From the IMG/VR virus record IMGVR_UViG_2713896896_000002, positions 1 through 6,915 of that record: 6,915 nucleotides of DNA, one strand, 5' to 3'. The position numbers and the translations under genes were made by a program. The stretch's first letter is position 1, and each line of letters starts with the position of its first letter. This document shows, one piece after another, positions 1-6,915 of this stretch. The notes under the pieces are model-generated. The model was not told where the DNA came from, did not search any database, and worked only from the letters and a program-made list of their open reading frames with translations. The stretch comes from a virus (taxonomy: Duplodnaviria > Heunggongvirae > Uroviricota > Caudoviricetes).

Positions 1-99
1 ACGCCTCGGGCTGGCTACTTAACCCCTGACCACTGCCTGGTAACTCAAAGTATTGCCCTGCGTTCTGTGGGGCGGGGAGGGTTGGTATGAAATAAAGGA

Positions 100-136
100 T
101 ACCCATAGGTATTCAAAAAGTAAATACCCATGGGTA
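100..136. promoter_or_regulatory. OL-like operator pair: two 12-bp palindromes TACCCATAGGTA (100-111) and TACCCATGGGTA (125-136)
   Basis: Second site is a perfect palindrome and the first differs at one position. Centres are 25 bp apart and sit about 45 bp beyond the 3' end of the repressor gene. The same TACC-N4-GGTA motif recurs in the repressor/cro intergenic region. Confidence 0.6.
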
Positions 137-178
137 AAATTTTGGGGTGTCTTAACTGGTGGCTGGTTGTTTGGTGAG

Positions 179-598
179 TTATGACGCGTTTTGTGCTTTC
201 TTTTTACGGATTTCTTCGTAGATCATATTGTAATACTGTTTTTTCTCTTCAAGAGTTTTTAATAAGTTATCCGTTTCACTTTCTGGCAGTTCGTCTAAGA
301 GATCTAAAAAAATACGTTGTCGTGGCGTTAGAACCCTTGTTTCATAATTGGAGGCTGTGTTCGTTGATGATGAAACGATACCATCCATCCATCCCCGGGG
401 TAACCCAAAGGACTCTTCGATAATCTCCACCATATCATCAGCGATCCGTTTTTTTCCTTTTTTCCCCTCTGGGTACAACATTCTTGATACATAAGAAGGC
501 TCGCGACCGATCTTTCTGGCCACGTTAACCGCTTTACCATCGCATTTCTCATCACGAATTTTGATGAGTTGCTGTCGTCTAAATTCATATTTGTCCAT
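179..598 (-). CDS. Prophage immunity repressor, XRE/Cro-CI family HTH, short form (139 aa) with no S24 peptidase domain
   Basis: ORF 179-640 on the minus strand. The HTH pattern (RRQQLIKIRDEK..GKAVNVARKIGREPSYVSRM...FGLPRGWMDG) fits XRE-family spacing if translation starts at Met15 (ATG = complement of 596-598); the longer ORF would start at 640 inside an operator. No Ser/Lys autocleavage domain: the protein ends about 80 aa after the HTH. Divergent from a cro-like gene, as for RacR/YdaS. No obvious SD for either start. Confidence 0.75.
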   Translation of the reverse strand: MDKYEFRRQQLIKIRDEKCDGKAVNVARKIGREPSYVSRMLYPEGKKGKKRIADDMVEIIEESFGLPRGWMDGIVSSSTNTASNYETRVLTPRQRIFLDLLDELPESETDNLLKTLEEKKQYYNMIYEEIRKKKAQNAS

Positions 599-699
599 AG
601 GTAAATAATAGATGCGATTACCGCAAGGTAAACAACCCATAGGTATTGACTTTTGTTTACCTGTGGGTATTCTTGACCGTAGTTTACTAAGGAGTAGCC
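599..699. promoter_or_regulatory. OR-like divergent control region: operator sites TACCGCAAGGTA (619-630, degenerate), AACCCATAGGTA (634-645), TACCTGTGGGTA (658-669); rightward promoter -35 TTGACT (646-651), -10 TATTCT (668-673)
   Basis: Three copies of the TACC-N4-GGTA palindrome lie between the divergent repressor and cro-like genes. A sigma70-like -35/-10 pair with 16-bp spacer overlaps site 658-669, and an AAGGAG Shine-Dalgarno (689-694) precedes the cro ATG at 700. The leftward repressor promoter was not confidently located. Confidence 0.6.
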
Positions 700-981
700 A
701 TGGAAGAATTAAGAATATTTCTCAATTCTCTTTCGTCAGATGAACAGCGTATGTTTGCATGTGAGTGTGGTACTAGCATCGGTTATCTAAGAAAGGCATT
801 GAGTAAAGGTCAAGTGTTAGGGGCATCGTTATGTGTCCTTATTGAGCGAGCCAGTAATGGTGAAGTTACACGTCAGCAACTAAGGCCTTTTGATTGGATG
901 AATATTTGGCCCGAGCTGGAAGATACCAAAACGTTAACACAACCACTTTCCAGGAGCTTGATTCATGATAATCAAGCATGA
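700..981 (+). CDS. Cro-like / YdaS-family HTH regulator (93 aa)
   Basis: First rightward gene after the operators, with a good SD. Sequence features (FACECGTSIGYLRKA..., ERASNGEV, LRPFDW) resemble the YdaS/Cro-like family as I recall it. Its 3' end overlaps the next gene by 17 nt. Confidence 0.7.
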   Translation: MEELRIFLNSLSSDEQRMFACECGTSIGYLRKALSKGQVLGASLCVLIERASNGEVTRQQLRPFDWMNIWPELEDTKTLTQPLSRSLIHDNQA

Positions 982-1390
982 GCACATCCGCATGGTGATG
1001 AATGCCTGGGCGCATCCGGACGGTGAAAAAGTTCCGGCGGCTGAAATAACCCGGGCTTATTTTGAGCTGGGTATGACGTTCCCGGAATTATATGACGACA
1101 GCCATCCTGAAGCCCTGGCTCGCAATACTCAGAAAATTTTCCGCTGGGTGGAGAAAGACACCCCTGATGCGGTTAAAAAAATTCAGGCGTTGTTACCAGC
1201 GATCGAAAAGGCAATGCCGCCTCTGCTGGTGGCCCGAATGCGCAGTCACAGTTCAGCCTATTTTCGGGAGCTGCTGGAGACGCGGGAGCGGCTGGTGAGG
1301 GATGCAGATGATTTTATTGCGGTGGCAATTGCTGGTTTCAACCAGATTAATCGCGGTGGCCCGGCAGGAAATGCCGTGGTGATGCACTAA
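965..1390 (+). CDS. YdaT-like protein (cII-position regulator of Rac-like prophages), 141 aa
   Basis: N-terminus MIIKHEHI... and overall size match my recollection of E. coli Rac YdaT (about 140 aa, starting MKIKHEHI). SD AGGAG at 950-954. Position immediately after cro is typical of cII analogues. Confidence 0.65.
   Translation: MIIKHEHIRMVMNAWAHPDGEKVPAAEITRAYFELGMTFPELYDDSHPEALARNTQKIFRWVEKDTPDAVKKIQALLPAIEKAMPPLLVARMRSHSSAYFRELLETRERLVRDADDFIAVAIAGFNQINRGGPAGNAVVMH
1225..1232 (+). other. Chi site GCTGGTGG
   Basis: Exact octamer on the + strand; two more copies occur at 6339-6346 and 6396-6403. Confidence 0.7.
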
Positions 1391-1413
1391 AAGCACGGTG
1401 TTCGGGGTTTTTT

Positions 1414-2376
1414 ATGAGCAGCAAGCTTCATGGTCTTGTCTGGGAAGGGTGTGCCTTCACCGGCATGATCTTATCCAGGGTGGCAGTGATGGCTCGTCTT
1501 GCAGACTACAGCAATGATGAAGGTGTGTCATGGCCTGCAGTAGAGACCATTCGTCGTCAGATTGGGGCAAAGAGTGAATCAACGGTTAAAGCGGCGATAG
1601 CGGAACTGGAAAAAAGCGGCTGGCTGACAAAGGAAGAGCGTAAGGTTGGCGGACGTAACGTAAGCAATATCTACCGGCTTAATGTGGAAAAACTCGAAGC
1701 TGCAGCAGCGGCGGCGCGAGAGGCATATAAACCGAAAAGAAAAATTAGCCCGGCAAAAAATGACCCGTTAACGGTTGACCCGTCAAATATTGACCCCTCA
1801 ACGGTTGACCCGTCAAATTTTGATGGATCAACCGTTGATAAAAAACGGTCGGTTAGGGGGGCGATGATTGACCCCGATCCGTCAGTATTAAAATCTGATC
1901 CATCAGATAAAAGATCTTCTTGTCCGGACGCTTCGCAACCGGACCCGCAGACGGCTGAACAGGATTTTTTTACCCGACACCCTGATGCGGTTGTGTTCAG
2001 TGCGAAAAAACGCCAGTGGGGAAGTCAGGAAGATTTGGCGTGCGCACAGTGGATCTGGGGACGAATCGTGAGTCTTTACGAGCAGGCGGCCAGCGATGAT
2101 GGCGAGATCACGCGACCGAAAGAACCAAACTGGACCGCGTGGGCCAATGACGTGCGCACAATGCGGATGCTGGATGGCAGAACTCACAGACAAATTTGCG
2201 AAATGTTTGGGCGGGTACAGCGGGATCCATTCTGGGTAAAAAACATCATGAGCCCGTCAAAGCTCCGCGAAAAATGGGACGAACTGGTCATCCGCCTGGG
2301 GCGTTCACCTGTACAGCGTTGTGTGAATCATATTTCTGAACCGGACACCGAAATTCCTCCGGGGTTCAGGGGGTAA
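1414..2376 (+). CDS. Replication initiation protein (lambda O analogue) with N-terminal winged-helix DNA-binding domain and DnaT-like C-terminus
   Basis: 320-aa ORF. The N-terminal region (VSWPAVETIRRQIGAKSESTVKAAIAELEKSGWL) looks like a winged helix. The C-terminal SEPDTEIPPGFRG closely matches the C-terminal end of E. coli DnaT as I recall it. Internal iterons encode a repetitive DPSNIDPSTVDPSNFDGSTVD linker. The gene is directly followed by a dnaC homologue, mirroring the host dnaT-dnaC operon. No clear SD for the ATG at 1414. Confidence 0.8.
   Translation: MSSKLHGLVWEGCAFTGMILSRVAVMARLADYSNDEGVSWPAVETIRRQIGAKSESTVKAAIAELEKSGWLTKEERKVGGRNVSNIYRLNVEKLEAAAAAAREAYKPKRKISPAKNDPLTVDPSNIDPSTVDPSNFDGSTVDKKRSVRGAMIDPDPSVLKSDPSDKRSSCPDASQPDPQTAEQDFFTRHPDAVVFSAKKRQWGSQEDLACAQWIWGRIVSLYEQAASDDGEITRPKEPNWTAWANDVRTMRMLDGRTHRQICEMFGRVQRDPFWVKNIMSPSKLREKWDELVIRLGRSPVQRCVNHISEPDTEIPPGFRG
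1760..1831. repeat. Iteron array inside the replication gene: five copies of TTGAYNNNTCAA-type 12-mer at 15-bp periodicity
   Basis: Copies at 1760-1771 (degenerate), 1775-1786, 1790-1801, 1805-1816 and 1820-1831. There is an exact 19-bp direct repeat AACGGTTGACCCGTCAAAT at 1770-1788 and 1800-1818. Each unit is an inverted repeat, TTGAC-CC-GTCAA. Confidence 0.75.
1832..1920. other. Putative origin unwinding region: A/T-rich tract with clustered GATC sites adjacent to the iterons
   Basis: GATAAAAAACGG followed by GATCCGTCAGTATTAAAATCTGATCCATCAGATAAAAGATCTTCT. GATC at 1876-1879, 1897-1900 and 1913-1916, with a direct repeat GATCCRTCAG. The layout parallels the lambda origin lying inside gene O. 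Confidence 0.55.
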
Positions 2377-2382
2377 CGAACC

Positions 2383-3129
2383 ATGAAAAATATTGCGACA
2401 GGCGGCGTTCTGGAACGTATCCGCAGACTGACCCCGCCACATGTAACCGCCCCATTCAGAACGGTAGCGGAGTGGCGCGAGTGGCAACTTGCTGAAGGCC
2501 AGAAGCGTAGCGAGGAGATCAACCGCCTGAATCGCCAGTTGCGGGTGGAAAAAATTCTGAATCGCTCAGGCATCCAGCCGTTGCACCGTAAATGCTCGTT
2601 TGCGAATTACCATGTACAGAACGACGGCCAGCGATACGCGTTAAGTCAGGCGAAATCCATCGCTGATGAACTGATGACCGGATGCACAAATTTCGCGTTC
2701 AGCGGAAAACCTGGTACCGGAAAAAACCATCTGGCGGCGGCTATCGGGAATCGCCTGCTGAAAGACGGCCAGACAGTGATAGTGGTTACTGTGGCTGATG
2801 TTATGAGTGCCCTGCACGCCAGCTATGACGACGGGCAGTCAGGCGAAAAATTTTTGCGGGAACTGTGCGAAGTGGATCTGCTGGTTCTTGATGAAATTGG
2901 CATTCAGCGTGAGACGAAAAACGAGCAGGTGGTGCTGCATCAGATTGTTGATCGCCGGACAGCATCGATGCGCAGTATGGGGATGCTGACAAACCTGAAC
3001 TATGAGGCCATGAAAACGTTGCTCGGCGAGAGGATTATGGATCGCATGACCATGAACGGCGGGCGCTGGGTGACTTTTAACTGGGAAAGCTGGCGCCCGA
3101 ATGTCGTCCAGCCAGGAATCACGAAGTGA
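2383..3129 (+). CDS. DnaC-family helicase loader (lambda P-position replication protein), AAA+ ATPase
   Basis: Walker [18 protein letters not shown] and Walker [10 protein letters not shown]. Strong end-to-end resemblance to E. coli DnaC as recalled (N-terminal MKN..., RSGIQPLH, C-terminal [22 protein letters not shown]...[10 protein letters not shown]). SD AGGGGG 9 nt upstream of the ATG. Confidence 0.92.
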
Positions 3130-3151
3130 TTTTTACCGGGAGGAAATTTTA

Positions 3152-3913
3152 ATGGAGACTGTTTTTGACGCACTGAAAGCGATGGGAAAGGCCACATCCA
3201 TAGAACTTGCTGCGCGACTTGATATCAGTCGTGAAGAGGTACTGAATGAGCTGTGGGAACTGAAAAAATCTGGTTTCGTTGATAAAACCGCGTACACCTG
3301 GCGTGTGGCTGGTAGCAATGCTCAGCAGGAACAAGCATCCCGGGCTGAATTTCATGAAGAAACTACCACGGCAACAGTAGCGAAAATCTCAGAGTGCGAT
3401 TTAACGGCGACGATTGAACAACGCGGACCACAAACGGCTGATGAGCTGGCTACGCTGTTCGGTATCACATCACGCAAAGTGGCTTCAACGTTGGCTCAGG
3501 CAATCAGCAAAGGTCGCCTGATTCGCGTAAATCAGAACGGTAAATTTCGTTACTGCATGCCGGACGATAATTTACCAGCAGAGCCGAAAGCCGCATTGGT
3601 AACGGAAACAGATGGTAAAGCCTTTCCTCAGCCAGCAGGTGTTGCGTTACCAGCACAGGAAACTGTAACACAGGAAGAAATTAAAACAGAAACTGTGGCG
3701 GACATTGTGCAGTCGCTGCCATCGTTCACCGAAACGCGGGCGGATGACCTGATTTTACCATCGCTGCATCTGGCAAACCGCGAACTGCGCCGGGCGAAAA
3801 ATCATGTCCAGAAGTGGGAGCGCGTCTGCGCCGCGCTGCGGGAGCTGAATAAACACCGGGATATTGTCCGACAGATTGTCGATTCCTCCAGTCGCGTTGT
3901 GTCGGAAAGGTGA
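3152..3913 (+). CDS. Hypothetical phage protein with two winged-helix-like repeats and a charged, probably coiled-coil C-terminus (253 aa; possibly DUF1627-like)
   Basis: Start placed at ATG 3152 because of SD GGGAGG at 3138-3143; the track ORF from 3101 would overlap dnaC-like. Two similar HTH-like segments ([30 protein letters not shown] and [32 protein letters not shown]). The family name is a tentative recollection. Confidence 0.7.
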
Positions 3914-3920
3914 GGCACTT

Positions 3921-4337
3921 ATGAGAAACGTTTTTACACCTGAATATCGGGAGCAACTGAAGGCGCGTATTGTGGAACTGGTGCGCAGAGATGGGAGGAA
4001 AACACGTAAGCAACTGGAGGATGAAACCGGAGCAACGAGACACCTGATAGAAGTTCTGGCGAAAGAGCTGGTAGTTAGTGGCACGCTATATGGTTCAGGC
4101 CATGGAATATTTCCTTCAGAACAGGCTCGTAAGGACTGGATAAAAGCCTGCAAAAAAATGTCGAGAGCGGCAGTGAAAAAGAAGAGCGACCCTGACCTGA
4201 TTTATTCATTGCCAGATGGTGAAATACGCCGTTACAACAGGAGACAGAACATAATTTGCCGAGAGTGCCGTCAGAGCGAAACTATGCAGCGCGTGCTGGC
4301 TTTCTGGAAGGGAAGTTTGCAGGAGGTGGTACTGTGA
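3921..4337 (+). CDS. Hypothetical protein (138 aa), basic, with N-terminal HTH-like segment
   Basis: Start at ATG 3921 with SD AAGGTGAGG (3907-3915) 5 nt upstream; the track start 3864 lacks an SD and overlaps the upstream gene. Tightly linked to the preceding ORF (7-nt gap), suggesting co-translation in one operon. Confidence 0.65.
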   Translation: MRNVFTPEYREQLKARIVELVRRDGRKTRKQLEDETGATRHLIEVLAKELVVSGTLYGSGHGIFPSEQARKDWIKACKKMSRAAVKKKSDPDLIYSLPDGEIRRYNRRQNIICRECRQSETMQRVLAFWKGSLQEVVL

Positions 4338-4464
4338 GCCAAATTAACAATCAGGACTGCGTGAAGTGAAAGAGAAAACATAATTCAAATCTGAATAATT
4401 AATCTCAGCACTGTAAATAAAATTTAATCCTTAACAGGAGGGATTCCTGCACCCTCAAAACATC

Positions 4465-4498
4465 AGGAGGCCGCCCGAAAGGGCGGTAATGAAAAATG
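4465..4498 (+). promoter_or_regulatory. Structured translation-initiation leader: SD AGGAGG (4465-4470), hairpin CCGCCC-GAAA-GGGCGG (4471-4486), start ATG 4496
   Basis: Perfect 6-bp GC stem with GAAA tetraloop sits exactly between a consensus SD and the start codon. Linear spacing is 25 nt, but about 9 nt if the hairpin is formed. A second weaker hairpin GAGGG-N9-CCCTC lies at 4438-4456. Confidence 0.5.
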
Positions 4499-4903
4499 AC
4501 TGAATTAACAAAAGAGCAATTAATCGAAGAAGCTAAATTAAAAATAGCGATTGCGAAATGCCACCCCAATTCAGGGGTGGCACGAGTAGAGGGTGAGTTA
4601 TTCAAAATTGCTCTGGCATCGCTGGAAGCAGAGCCGATAGCGTGGGAATACGGCGAAAACATAATCCTGTTTAATCCTGACACAGTTGAAGCATACGCAA
4701 AACGTGCAGAGATAACACCTAAACCTCTATTCACCGCTACACCTGTGTCACTGACACCAGAAGGATTGATTAAAGCAGTGCGTTTCTATGAACAGGTTAA
4801 GCGTGAAAATCCGCCAGTCGAAACCGGAGCATGGAAAGACGCGGTTGACTGGGTGCTCAAAGAGGCCTGTCGTGCAGCCATGCTTAAGGGAGATAAATCA
4901 TGA
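4496..4903 (+). CDS. Hypothetical protein (135 aa)
   Basis: Clean ORF. Its stop overlaps the next start in an ATGA arrangement (4900-4903). Preceded by a 158-bp AT-rich intergenic region and the structured leader. No family recognised. Confidence 0.65.
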   Translation: MTELTKEQLIEEAKLKIAIAKCHPNSGVARVEGELFKIALASLEAEPIAWEYGENIILFNPDTVEAYAKRAEITPKPLFTATPVSLTPEGLIKAVRFYEQVKRENPPVETGAWKDAVDWVLKEACRAAMLKGDKS

Positions 4904-5247
4904 TTAATCGAACCAAACTGGAGCACATCCTTGAGTATGCCTGGCAGCAGAGGCATTTGGGTCAGCACTGTAAAATTCCACCAGGAGATATGGTTGAAAT
5001 CGTGGAGATTGCCATGCGTAAGACTGGCAACTCTCCGGTAACTTCGGGCGGTTGGATAAGCTGTAGTGAGCGAATGCCAGGTGATGGTCAGCACGTAATT
5101 ATTTTATGTGATGGCGCATTCGTTCTTCATGCGCAATATCGAGACGGTGAGTTTTTCGATATTGTCCGCAATGGTAATGAATTTTTTGAAACACAGAGCC
5201 GCAATGTAACCGACTGGATGCCGCTACCAGAACCACGAAGGAGGTGA
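4900..5247 (+). CDS. DUF551-like phage protein (115 aa)
   Basis: C-terminal pattern GGWISCSERMPGDGQHVIILC...DGEFFDIV...VTDWMPLPEP matches my recollection of the DUF551 signature (W..P....V.....g....DWMPLPEP). Start overlaps the upstream stop, suggesting translational coupling. Confidence 0.65.
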   Translation: MINRTKLEHILEYAWQQRHLGQHCKIPPGDMVEIVEIAMRKTGNSPVTSGGWISCSERMPGDGQHVIILCDGAFVLHAQYRDGEFFDIVRNGNEFFETQSRNVTDWMPLPEPRRR

Positions 5248-5251
5248 ATCA

Positions 5252-5323
5252 ATGAGCTGGCCTGAGGCATTCACAACAGTAGGTATTGTACTGGCGGTGT
5301 ATTCGATTTGCCGCTGGGGGTAA
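5252..5323 (+). CDS. Small ORF, 23 aa, predicted single-pass hydrophobic peptide (MSWPEAFTTVGIVLAVYSICRWG)
   Basis: Not in the ORF track. Near-perfect SD AAGGAGGTGA (5238-5247) with 7-nt spacing to ATG 5252; stop TAA 5321-5323. It sits directly after the DUF551 gene in the same orientation. Confidence 0.5.
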   Translation: MSWPEAFTTVGIVLAVYSICRWG

Positions 5324-5329
5324 GGTATT

Positions 5330-5373
5330 AAAAAACGCCCCGCACACATAAGTTGGGCGCCTGAGATGCGGGG
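5330..5373 (-). terminator. Putative intrinsic terminator oriented for leftward (minus-strand) transcription
   Basis: 7-bp GC-rich stem CCCCGCA (5338-5344) / TGCGGGG (5367-5373). On the minus strand the stem is followed by CG then TTTTTT (complement of A-run 5330-5335). The loop is long (22 nt) and may fold further. There is no T-run after it on the plus strand. Confidence 0.4.
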
Positions 5374-5484
5374 ATAGGGAGTTGGTTAAATAGTTATACA
5401 ACAATACTTGATTTTGCATTGAAGCAAGGAGGAGATTGCCACATATTGAATCATGCACGTGTACGTCAAATGTGGGAGGTCATC

Positions 5485-5574
5485 GTGCTGGTTCTGAAAT
5501 GTGCGCTGGCTATTGCGGCTGTAATGGCAATTTATTGTCTTGTTATTGTTCTTATGAATCACCTCTCTGATTGA
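5485..5574 (+). CDS. Small ORF, 29 aa, very hydrophobic peptide (MLVLKCALAIAAVMAIYCLVIVLMNHLSD); candidate small membrane toxin-like peptide
   Basis: Not in the ORF track. SD GGGAGG (5474-5479) is 5 nt upstream of GTG 5485; an in-frame ATG at 5470 without SD would give 34 aa. Stop TGA 5572-5574. Composition resembles type I toxin peptides (single TM helix, short polar tail). Confidence 0.45.
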   Translation: MLVLKCALAIAAVMAIYCLVIVLMNHLSD

Positions 5575-5581
5575 TTTTATA

Positions 5582-5610
5582 TTGGCGAGGTGACGTGAGT
5601 TAAGTAGAAT
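5582..5610 (+). promoter_or_regulatory. Putative hok mRNA promoter: -35 TTGGCG (5582-5587), 17-bp spacer, -10 TAGAAT (5605-5610)
   Basis: Sigma70-like elements positioned so that transcription would start near 5617, at the GGGTGCTTGAGGC element typical of hok-family mRNA 5' ends. Confidence 0.5.
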
Positions 5611-5659
5611 TGCTGCGGGTGCTTGAGGCTATCTGTCTCAGGCATGAACACCAAAAGGC

Positions 5660-5750
5660 AGATAGAGAAAAGCCCCAGTTAACATTACGCGTCTTGCAGG
5701 ACGCTTAACATTAATCTGAGGCTCAATCCATGCTGAACACATGTAGGTTA
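5660..5750 (-). ncRNA. Expected position of a Sok-like antisense RNA overlapping the hok leader / mok-like start (boundaries not resolved)
   Basis: Inferred from the hok-family architecture. Candidate minus-strand promoter: -35 TTGCCT (complement of 5768-5773), -10 TAACCT (complement of 5745-5750). I could not identify a clean terminator, so the extent is approximate. Confidence 0.3.
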
Positions 5751-5786
5751 GCCTCTTACGTGCCGAAAGGCAAGGAGAAGCAGGCT

Positions 5787-5942
5787 ATGAAGCAGCAAAA
5801 GGCGATGTTAGTCGCCCTGATCGTCATCTGTTTAACCGTCATTGTTACGGCACTGGTAACGAGGAAAGACCTCTGCGAGGTACGAATCCGAACCGGTCAG
5901 ACGGAGGTCGCTGTCTTCACAGCTTACGAACCTGAGGAGTAA
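5787..5942 (+). CDS. hokD: Hok/Gef-family type I toxin (51 aa), closest in my recollection to HokD (RelF)
   Basis: MKQQKAMLVALIVICLTVIVTALVTRKDLCEVRIRTGQTEVAVFTAYEPEE carries the Hok signature (TM helix then RKDLCEVRIRTGQTEVAVFTAYE). SD AAGGAGAAG at 5772-5780. An in-frame upstream ATG at 5730 (track ORF 5730-5942) may play a mok-like coupling role. Confidence 0.85.
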   Translation: MKQQKAMLVALIVICLTVIVTALVTRKDLCEVRIRTGQTEVAVFTAYEPEE

Positions 5943-5950
5943 GAGACCAG

Positions 5951-6005
5951 GCGAGGGAGAAATCCCTCGCCACCTCTGATGAGTCAGGCATCCTCAACGC
6001 ACCCG
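5951..6005 (+). other. hok mRNA 3' structures: hairpin GCGAGGGA-GAAA-TCCCTCGC (5951-5970) and fbi-like element CCTCAACGCACCC (5993-6005) complementary to the mRNA 5' end (5617-5628)
   Basis: The 3' element is the reverse complement of GGGTGCTTGAGG at the predicted 5' end, with one bulged base. This is the hallmark 5'-3' closure of full-length hok mRNAs. The hairpin is a perfect 8-bp stem with GAAA loop. Confidence 0.6.
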
Positions 6006-6296
6006 CACTTACAACCGATGGCGCACGATACCAAATTATACAATTCTGATGATTCTGCCGTCTTTGCCAGCAGGCGCGGACGGTGTTTTCACGCATTCAA
6101 ATCTGACTGGTACCAGCATCCCCCATGCACTGAAGAACAGGCCGAATGGATAATTCAGTGTTACCGCAGGCGCGGATGCGAGGTTAAAAAAGCCCTTAGC
6201 CTCGACTACCGTCACTGGATAATCTCCGTCAGGCTCCCTTACTCCGAACGGCCGCCGCGTCCGTCCCGCACATTCCAGCAACGGATCTGGAGGTAA
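5979..6296 (+). CDS. Hypothetical protein, possibly Rem-like (Qin-prophage position between hokD and ydfU); 105 aa, or 92 aa from ATG 6018
   Basis: ORF with plausible protein-like composition (FKSDWYQHPPCTEEQAEWIIQCYRRRGCEVKK). Gene order matches hokD-rem-ydfU as I recall for E. coli K-12 Qin. No SD for either candidate start; the 5979 start would lie inside the hok mRNA 3' end. Confidence 0.5.
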   Translation: MSQASSTHPHLQPMAHDTKLYNSDDSAVFASRRGRCFHAFKSDWYQHPPCTEEQAEWIIQCYRRRGCEVKKALSLDYRHWIISVRLPYSERPPRPSRTFQQRIWR

Positions 6297-6297
6297 C

Positions 6298-6915
6298 GTG
6301 CGGGTATTACTTCGACCTGTTCTGGTACCGGAACTCGGGCTGGTGGTCCTTAAGCCTGGTCGTGAATCCATGCAGGTATTTCATAATCCTCGAGTGCTGG
6401 TGGAGCCGGAACCGAAAAGCATGCGCAGTCTGCCGTCAGGAGCTGTTCCTGCCGTTCGCCAGCCGCTCGTGGAAGATAAATCATTACTGCCATTTTTCAG
6501 CGATGAGCGGGCGATTCGTGCTGCTGGCGGCGCTGGCGCATTGTCTGACTGGCTCCTGCGTCATGTTAAATCCTGCCAGTGGCCTCATGGTGACTATCAC
6601 CACAGCGAAACCGTCATACATCGTTACGGTACCGGCGCGATGGTGTTGTGCTGGCACTGTGACAACCAGCTGCGCGACCAGACATCAGAGTCACTCGGGC
6701 AACTTGCTCAACAAAACTTGTCAGCATGGATGATTGACGTCATCCGTCACGCAATGAATGGCACACAGGAGCGGGAATTATCGCTGGCTGAATTATCCTG
6801 GTGGGCGGTCCGCAATCAGGTGGCGGACGCGCTACCGGAAGTGGTATTACGTCGTTCGCTGGGGTTGCGTGCGGAAAAAATCCGCTCAATGTACCGTGAA
6901 AGCGACATCGTACCG
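6298..6915 (+). CDS. DUF968/YdfU-like prophage protein, 5' portion (continues beyond window end)
   Basis: Open frame from GTG 6298 to the window edge (206 codons, no stop). SD GGAGG at 6289-6293. The GTG lies 1 nt after the upstream stop TAA (6294-6296). Cys/His-rich segment CQWPHGDYHHSETVIHRYGTGAMVLCWHCDNQ. The track ORF 6362-6733 is in another frame and looks spurious. Alternative start ATG 6370. Confidence 0.65.
   Translation, partial: MRVLLRPVLVPELGLVVLKPGRESMQVFHNPRVLVEPEPKSMRSLPSGAVPAVRQPLVEDKSLLPFFSDERAIRAAGGAGALSDWLLRHVKSCQWPHGDYHHSETVIHRYGTGAMVLCWHCDNQLRDQTSESLGQLAQQNLSAWMIDVIRHAMNGTQERELSLAELSWWAVRNQVADALPEVVLRRSLGLRAEKIRSMYRESDIVP
6339..6403 (+). other. Two Chi sites (GCTGGTGG) 57 bp apart at 6339-6346 and 6396-6403
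   Basis: Exact octamers in the same orientation as the site at 1225. Confidence 0.7.

Follow-up and report, generated by a model that had tools for sequence, protein, structure and literature searches.

Introduction

The characterised lambdoid switches closest to the one described here are the PaaR2-YdaS-YdaT switch of prophage CP-933P (Sp12) of Escherichia coli O157:H7 and the DicA-DicC switch of the Qin prophage, not that of the Rac prophage. YdaS and YdaT are analogues of Cro and CII (PMC8630535, PMC5917428), and the 'toxin' label that they carry traces to an old prediction (PMC5917428). YdaT of CP-933P is not toxic (PMC8630535), and YdaT of Rac is toxic only through a host site at rcsA (PMC11879457). 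DicA is inactivated by Rem (PMC10448788); for GtgR, of the Gifsy prophages, this role falls to GftA or FsoA, and LexA controls the antirepressor genes of Gifsy (PMC3121763). Here we describe the immunity region of a Caudoviricetes virus, contained in a stretch of 6,915 bp (positions 1 to 6,915 of IMG/VR record IMGVR_UViG_2713896896_000002; hereafter, the window) that is the early region of a lambdoid prophage. An earlier note, made from the sequence alone, had read positions 179-1390 as a RacR/YdaS/YdaT-type immunity module with a short repressor. We conclude, with a probability of about 0.8, that positions 96-1390 make up the immunity (lysis/lysogeny) switch of a lambdoid prophage of the Rac/Qin/CP-933P kind, and that its repressor is chimeric.

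Results

The genes of the switch are conserved among E. coli prophages. Positions 100-1400 were 96% identical to a full-size prophage that adjoins yccA in E. coli ECOR29, and of 5,426 complete E. coli genomes, 821 contained a 100-nt segment of the repressor gene. This frequency indicates that the genes at 179-1390 are real and conserved, and not chance open reading frames (ORFs). The repressor ORF that was called mechanically encodes 153 amino acids and is 14 codons too long at its start. The actual start is M15, an ATG at 598-596 on the minus strand, giving a protein of 139 amino acids: PGAP annotates 139 amino acids at the 96%-identical ECOR29 locus, the match to PHROG 5736 begins at residue 15, and all homologues of the repressor begin with MDKYE. 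The bounds that the earlier note gave, 179 and 1390, coincide with the stop codons of the repressor and ydaT genes. Coordinates of these and the other features are given in Table 1.

The repressor has no protease domain. No S24 match to it was found in Pfam (PF00717), NCBIfam or PDB sequence searches, and a tblastn search of the window with S24 domains found nothing. A motif search of the repressor sequence found no Ala-Gly or Cys-Gly cleavage site and neither the GDSM nor the FKKL motif. Alignment with lambda CI and with P22 C2 found no similarity, and Pfam gave no match to the protein at E ≤ 0.1. The structure predicted with AlphaFold2 was all-alpha and without beta structure (mean predicted local distance difference test score, pLDDT, 80.6), with helices at residues 3-18, 23-30, 34-41, 54-63, 92-103 and 106-138 and disorder at 72-90; the C-terminal helical hairpin (92-138) was predicted at a pLDDT of 85-92. 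Foldseek matched the model to XRE-type regulators and, in the Rep-Ant complex of a Salmonella phage (5d50), to the Rep repressor, in support of an HTH fold. The earlier note had described a repressor of about 139 amino acids with an N-terminal helix-turn-helix (HTH) and no S24 domain, which the ORF, the predicted fold, and the Pfam and motif searches bear out.

The head of the repressor is that of a CI-type, S24-bearing family. Residues 1-74 were 70-85% identical to the heads of many PF00717-bearing repressors of 221-242 amino acids, such as P0050 (221). Among the 120 best homologues of the repressor were 79 PF00717 (S24) repressors of 219-242 amino acids, from Salmonella, Edwardsiella, Yersinia, Pantoea, Klebsiella and other sources. 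These 79 aligned only with query residues 1 to ~75-100 (the first 53-77%), with an identity of 55-85% over the aligned part, mostly 60-85%, and the recognition helix, PSYVSRMLY, was essentially invariant among them. The S24 domain of these siblings is complete, with the A-G cleavage site, the serine of GDSM and the lysine of FKKL, whereas the window protein has a helical tail; in one sibling the C-terminal domain shares 36% identity with that of lambda CI. In a DNA comparison with a Salmonella S24 sibling, identity was ~70% through codon 75 and at background level beyond.

The tail of the repressor is related to the C-termini of DicA and GtgR. It aligned with the C-terminus of DicA (33% identity over 46 amino acids, E = 1e-7), with no alignment outside the tail, and the NCBIfam DicA model aligned with residues 98-150 of the 153-residue ORF. 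With Gifsy-2 GtgR the tail shares the motif RVL..KE..LL.LF..LPE.E (43% identity over 21 amino acids, E = 1e-3), and a C-terminal motif, L-[TS]-P-x-x-x-x-x-L-x-L-[FL]-x-x-L-P-E-S-E, is common to it and DicA/GtgR. Like the window repressor, DicA of Qin and GtgR and GfoR of Gifsy, whose antirepressors include GftA and GfoA, are short proteins (~135-139 amino acids) with an HTH head and neither an Ala-Gly site nor an S24 domain, but DicA has an HTH_3 head that is unrelated to the head of the window repressor. Used alone as the query against 1.84 billion representative proteins, the tail gave 35 matches, every one of them at, or a few residues from, the C-terminus of the protein. The tail-bearing proteins were mostly 117-216 amino acids long (a few were fragments of 55-90), and among those whose heads were scanned the N-terminal HTH types varied: HTH_3, CI-type, the type of the window repressor, or none recognised. 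Based on the match of the head to S24 repressors and of the tail to proteins with diverse heads, sequence comparison indicates that the repressor is a natural chimera, a CI-family head in which the protease domain has been replaced, past residue 74, by a portable DicA/GtgR-type tail module of ~50 amino acids.

The repressor is not a member of the RacR family. BLASTP against RacR (158 amino acids) gave an E-value of 2.3, that is, no detectable homology, and two profile comparisons with hhalign gave probabilities of 8.7% and 0.2%, reflecting only a generic HTH. We therefore rejected membership of that family. The window shares with the Rac switch of E. coli K-12 its gene order, a YdaT that is 33% identical over its full length, a partly similar YdaS, and downstream homologues of YdaV (DnaC-like) and YdaW (DUF1627). 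It differs in the repressor and in the initiator gene, which in Rac is the DUF1376 gene ydaU. The label of a RacR/YdaS/YdaT-type module thus holds for YdaT and probably for YdaS, by sequence and by matches in the PDB, and the repressor is unrelated to RacR.

Several database assemblies carry a frameshifted form of the repressor gene. Just past the HTH, at window positions ~446-467, the minus-strand mRNA reads GGGGAAAAAAGGAAAAAAACGG, in which two runs of A encode a GKKGKK loop. In several GenBank assemblies (L013-L015, ~10120) one run has A8 in place of A7, so that the repressor is frameshifted; elsewhere the gene and those around it are ~99% identical. No exact copy of the A8 allele was found in the 5,426 RefSeq complete genomes. 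The A8 alleles are probably homopolymer sequencing errors; a real mutational hot-spot is the alternative. We had considered these alleles, in which ydaS, ydaT and O are intact, as natural evidence that the repressor is dispensable, and dropped this argument given that the difference is confined to the homopolymer and is absent from RefSeq complete genomes.

Five operator-like palindromes lie on the two sides of the repressor gene. We aligned the regulatory regions of six loci (two from E. coli and one S24-type locus from Salmonella, and tail-type loci, two from Yersinia and one from Serratia). A 14-bp palindrome, TTACC-N4-GGTAA, occurred at four sites in the window with at most three mismatches, compared to 0.23 expected, and none of 200 shuffled sequences reached four. 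The alignment added a third OR site (OR3), which the strict pattern search had missed on account of its different centre, for a total of three OR and two OL palindromes. The sites are kept across S24-type and tail-type loci, in E. coli, Salmonella, Yersinia and Serratia, and paired OL sites at a spacing of 24-26 bp were present in every locus examined. Their assignment as operators is based on conservation and position. A 'terminator' called at 136-100 was discarded; it is the two palindromic OL operators.

The operators overlap three promoters or candidate promoters. PR, which drives the cro/ydaS-ydaT-O-dnaC-like operon, is overlapped by OR1 and OR2. In the candidate PRM, the TAnnAT and GGTAAA positions were invariant in all six loci. 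Its -10 element ends 6 nt ahead of the repressor ATG and there is no Shine-Dalgarno sequence, from which we infer that the repressor mRNA is probably leaderless, as are those of lambda cI and CP-933P paaR2 (PMC8630535). With a leaderless start, the centre of OR2, calculated from the coordinates, would be ~42 bp upstream of the transcription start (at about -42), as where lambda CI activates PRM. The layout of the candidate PL mirrors that of PR, with OL1 and OL2 overlapping it as OR1 and OR2 overlap PR, and the AGTAAA (-35) element is kept in four of five loci. This promoter, which we assign by inference, would point leftward out of the window, toward the ydfA, dicB, kil and recE genes of related prophages. 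Leftward genes are present in ECOR29; the PL-side neighbours that related E. coli prophages share with Qin are DUF1391/ydfA, ydfB and dicB.

Sister prophages carry variable cargo between the repressor gene and OL. In the window OL adjoins the repressor stop codon at 42 bp and the slot is empty. It holds rexA-rexB in a Salmonella prophage (L005, 6745-8035), genes for a DUF3024 protein, an AAA_15 ATPase and a DNA methylase in a Yersinia locus (L010, 10485-13914), and a gene for a Bro-N protein in another Yersinia locus (L009, 11308-12126).

The two rightward genes encode a YdaS-like Cro and a YdaT-family CII analogue. The Cro analogue matched the CP-933P-type 'Cro' structures 8c7k and 8co2 (E = 1e-10 over 70 amino acids), was 54% identical to Rac YdaS over 28 amino acids, and scored 25.8 bits with PF15943, under the cut-off of 30. 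It was 60-70% identical to the Cro proteins of loci with the same repressor head, the S24 loci among them. The YdaT protein scored 38.9 bits with PF06254 (cut-off, 21) and combines a POU-like HTH head with a tetramerising helix. Over 139 amino acids it matched PDB 3c4r (E = 1.5e-87), with a nearly identical printed alignment, and the structure of CP-933P YdaT, 8bt1 (E = 6e-79). Of the family memberships that the earlier note had claimed, that of the second gene in the YdaT family is supported by the alignment with Rac YdaT, the PDB matches and the PF06254 score, and that of the first in the YdaS family is probable by its alignment with Rac YdaS and its PDB matches.

A perfect YdaT operator lies at the junction of ydaS and ydaT. 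Its motif and position are those of the footprinted OM site of CP-933P YdaT (PMC9986795), a site tied to a YdaT-dependent leftward promoter (PMC9986795, PMC8630535), and the Rac YdaT box is the same motif (PMC11879457). A second palindrome of this kind, CTGATTCGCGTAAATCAG, with two mismatches, is at 3518-3535, in the DUF1627 gene; its occurrence is at chance level, with at least two sites in 18 of 200 shuffled sequences.

The head, the operators and Cro appear to be inherited as one unit. At OR and OL the S24-type loci have TTACC-N4-GGTAA operators as the window does, but a lambda-type CII or another gene where the window has YdaT; the Yersinia and Serratia loci likewise have a lambda-type CII (PF05269) at that place. 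Since the head, operators and Cro are conserved together and the C-terminal domain and CII vary among loci, we take the former to be one unit and the latter to be exchangeable.

The window shares several features of its switch with CP-933P. In both, a short, non-cleavable CI analogue is divergent from a YdaS-type Cro and a YdaT-type CII, the TTGATT-N6-AATCAA operators at the ydaS/ydaT junction are identical, the repressor mRNA is probably leaderless, and O-like and DnaC-like replication genes are downstream. Unlike CP-933P, the window has no paaA2-parE2 toxin-antitoxin pair following the repressor gene. The similarity to the CP-933P Cro is only moderate (E = 1e-10), and the operators and the immunity are accordingly expected to differ.

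No antirepressor gene was recognised in the window. The gene of phrog_1212 lies at the position of rem in Qin and was dropped as a candidate; it is unrelated to Rem. Nor is it specific to tail-type repressors, because it is also present in phage vB_EcoS-689R5, which has an S24 repressor. The ECOR29 homologue (L001, 15563-15835) has a perfect CTGT-N8-ACAG upstream (L001, 15478-15493); this sequence has a GC-rich centre and also adjoins a parDE pair. Our search for LexA boxes recovered the Gifsy-2 dinI box (17 of 20 positions). In ECOR29 the only good box was TACTGTAAAAATATCCAGTT (16 of 20; L001, 19094-19113), outside the window, after the Q gene and at the annotated start of a DNA methyltransferase, and not at a candidate antirepressor. 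An ORF6N-domain protein, of an antirepressor-like family, is encoded ~0.6 kb upstream of this site, also outside the window. In an E. coli prophage at the ompW site that has the same immunity region, the leftward operon encodes a 284-amino-acid protein with Ash and Rha domains (PF10554, PF09669; L013, 11924-12778). This family is often annotated as phage regulator or antirepressor, and the protein is a candidate antirepressor of the window repressor.

The window contains one genuine killer module, which is separate from the switch. Rfam identified sok with 118.9 bits at 5617-5792, and the mok/hok ORF at 5730-5942 matched Pfam HOK_GEF (E = 1.8e-23), with a stem-loop past the stop codon at about 5950-5972. 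Together these form a complete type I toxin-antitoxin module, and hok/sok is the post-segregational killer of the window. The repressor, Cro and YdaT proteins had no match to a toxin-antitoxin family in Pfam or NCBIfam beyond the historical Pfam names.

Replication genes are downstream of the switch. In the O-like gene, positions 1749-1838 consist of six tandem 15-bp units with a consensus of about TGACCCGTCAAnnnT, encoding the peptide repeat DPS(N/T)(I/V)D. These units look like origin iterons inside the initiator gene, as in lambda O.

Table 1. Positions of the features of the switch and of the neighbouring genes in the 6,915-bp window.
Feature	Position	Strand	Remarks
OL operator 1, ATACCCATAGGTAT	99..112		14-bp near-palindrome over spacer and -10 of candidate PL; kept in five loci, four genera
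OL operator 2, ATACCCATGGGTAA	124..137		abuts -35 of candidate PL; 25 bp start-to-start from OL1
Candidate PL	96..124	-	-35 TTTACT (124-119), 17-nt spacer, -10 TATCCT (101-96)
Repressor gene, CI analogue, 139 aa	179-598	-	stop codon 179-181
Repressor helical tail, DicA/GtgR-type (residues 91-139)	182-328		
Repressor linker (residues 75-90)	329-376		
Repressor DNA-binding head, predicted (residues 1-74)	377-598		HTH at residues 23-41
Candidate PRM	605..632	-	-35 TTTACC (632-627), 16-nt spacer, -10 TATTAT (610-605); promoter scan
OR3-like operator, TTACCGCAAGGTAA	618..631		over PRM -35; TTACC-N4-GGTAA in 6/6 aligned loci
OR2-like operator, CAACCCATAGGTAT	633..646		touches PR -35
PR promoter	646..673	+	TTGACT, 16-nt spacer, TATTCT; promoter scan; conserved in alignment
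OR1-like operator, TTACCTGTGGGTAT	657..670		within PR spacer and -10; 24 bp from OR2
Cro analogue gene, YdaS-like, 93 aa	700-981	+	AAGGAG Shine-Dalgarno at 689-694
YdaT (CII-analogue) operator, TTGATTCATGATAATCAA	958..975		perfect TTGATT-N6-AATCAA, no mismatch; in ydaS/ydaT overlap
CII analogue gene, YdaT family, 141 aa	965-1390	+	stop codon ends at 1390
O-like initiator gene, with six 15-bp iteron-like units	1414-2376		HTH_36/O-like; downstream of ydaT
DnaC-like loader gene	2383-3129		3' of O-like initiator gene
DUF1627, DUF977, unknown protein, DUF551			in this order after DnaC-like loader
hok/sok module	5617-5942		3' of DUF551
Small phrog_1212 gene	6018-6296 (ORF listed from 5979)		no Pfam hit; between hok and DUF968/ydfU
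DUF968/YdfU gene			start of the gene is the end of the window

Discussion

Judged from the position of its elements and from the analogy with lambda, CP-933P and Qin, the switch most probably operates as follows. Repressor dimers would bind pairwise to OR1 and OR2 and to OL1 and OL2, with a spacing of 24-25 bp, and turn off PR and PL. Repressor bound at OR2, centred at ~-42, would activate the leaderless PRM transcript, and occupation of OR3 would limit PRM, giving negative autoregulation. Cro would compete at the same operator sites. After infection, YdaT would activate a leftward establishment promoter, and repression would be set up. Release from repression is most likely to come from an antirepressor acting in trans and encoded outside the window, from stochastic Cro-driven switching, or from both.

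The switch is very unlikely to be triggered by RecA-stimulated self-cleavage, given the absence of the S24 domain. That the repressor cannot be induced by this route is well supported, in agreement with the earlier note, which had called it unlikely. A cryptic autocleavage function, persisting in a protein without sequence similarity to S24, is hardly credible, and we found nothing in its favor. The earlier note had raised a hidden S24-like Ser/Lys pair, and the structure prediction was negative for such a fold: the S24 core is a beta-barrel and the predicted repressor is all-alpha. The absence of an A-G or C-G site, of the Ser/Lys motif, and of S24 matches in Pfam, NCBIfam and PDB also argues against it. 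We think it very improbable, too, that the repressor gene is what remains of a CI-type gene after a truncating deletion in a cryptic prophage, its product lacking a working C-terminal domain. The head clearly descends from S24-type repressors or is common to them, and many of the carriers are probably defective prophages, as such a history would have it. But the tail is not random read-through: it is a conserved module with 35 independent C-terminal matches on varied heads, its helical hairpin is a high-confidence prediction, it has been kept from E. coli to Yersinia and Serratia, and the repressor gene is intact in the 821 E. coli genomes. The proposal that the module is an addiction system, in which YdaS and/or YdaT are toxins held in check by the repressor and loss of the repressor is lethal, is taken from Rac; it is weakly supported here, and we regard it as improbable. 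In its favor, Pfam labels the PF15943 and PF06254 families 'toxins', racR is essential in K-12 and overexpression of ydaS/ydaT is toxic (PMC5700373, PMC5700377), Rac YdaT makes cells filamentous by way of rcsA (PMC11879457), and PL genes, which in related prophages include kil and dicB, would be released on derepression as well. However, YdaT of the window is close to the YdaT of CP-933P, a non-toxic, CII-like activator (PMC8630535, PMC9986795), its operator is exactly where the site of a PRE-type activator is expected, and the genuine killer of the window, hok/sok, is located elsewhere. The same head and Cro also occur together with a lambda-type CII, which indicates that YdaT is no cognate toxin but a regulator that can be swapped. 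A lysogen without the repressor would very probably be harmed, as with any prophage; an inducible prophage of any kind is lethal once its repressor is lost (PMC5917428).

Some of our results weigh against the main reading. Binding of the repressor to the five operators is predicted, and the candidate PL agrees with the consensus at only 8 of 12 positions, which puts it under the threshold of the promoter scan. The AlphaFold2 model was built from a shallow alignment of 13 sequences, and the Foldseek E-values were weak (1e-3 to 0.3), though the picture that they gave was consistent. For induction, no LexA box was found in the window. A tblastn search with Rem found no credible homologue in the window or in the ECOR29, Yersinia or Serratia loci, and neither did a search of the same loci with two small Gifsy-2 ORFs near dinI, which are GftA candidates of unverified identity. 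Both characterised tail-bearing proteins, DicA and GtgR, are inactivated by small antirepressors, but a common tail is not proof of sensitivity to an antirepressor, because Rem and the Gifsy antirepressors could make contact with either the head or the tail. By analogy with these two proteins, an antirepressor route, which is compatible with stochastic switching, is plausible at somewhat less than even odds; the suggestion in the earlier note of an antirepressor or some other route was a reasonable inference. It is possible, though doubtful, that there is no dedicated inducer and that the switch flips stochastically or under stress, through Cro-driven bistability, instability or proteolysis of the repressor, or temperature, as has been reported for DicA/DicC and PaaR2/YdaS. 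The lack of an antirepressor homologue in the window and the ECOR29 prophage, and of a LexA box in the window, would fit this, as would the reported Rem-independent derepression of DicA targets, which is spontaneous or induced by urea or heat (PMC10448788), and the CP-933P switch, which is bistable and whose PaaR2 is unresponsive to mitomycin C (PMC8630535). On the other side, full-size prophages with lysis and tail genes carry the region, which argues for a usable induction route, and antirepressors are small, diverse and readily missed by BLAST, and can come in trans from other prophages (PMC3121763).

On an otherwise unchanged immunity cassette, the tail stands naturally where S24 would be, and this feature seems to us the one most worth pursuing. 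Tentatively, the tail of ~50 amino acids may be a portable replacement of S24 that serves in oligomerisation, and possibly as the receiver of an antirepressor, on an unchanged cassette of head, operators and Cro, giving an allele that is blind to the SOS response. If so, the prophage would carry a natural dominant ind- repressor, silent in SOS and holding homoimmune inducible phages in check, and release would be handed to a separate antirepressor that is possibly common to several prophages. Dominance of this kind would follow from the match of the recognition helix and the operators to those of the cleavable siblings. The natural pair, with the same head and operators and either S24 or the tail, is matched such that the role of the tail and the part recognised by an antirepressor can be tested.

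The immunity region is carried by ~15% of complete E. coli genomes, in which the repressor is annotated only as 'hypothetical protein'. Its identity as a protein with a CI-type head and a DicA/Gifsy-type tail corrects the labelling of the locus as 'toxin YdaS/YdaT', predicts that the prophages that carry it have no direct response to RecA, and suggests cross-immunity between cleavable and non-cleavable prophages. The finding extends the known class of antirepressor-type lambdoid switches, and the current understanding of these switches stands.

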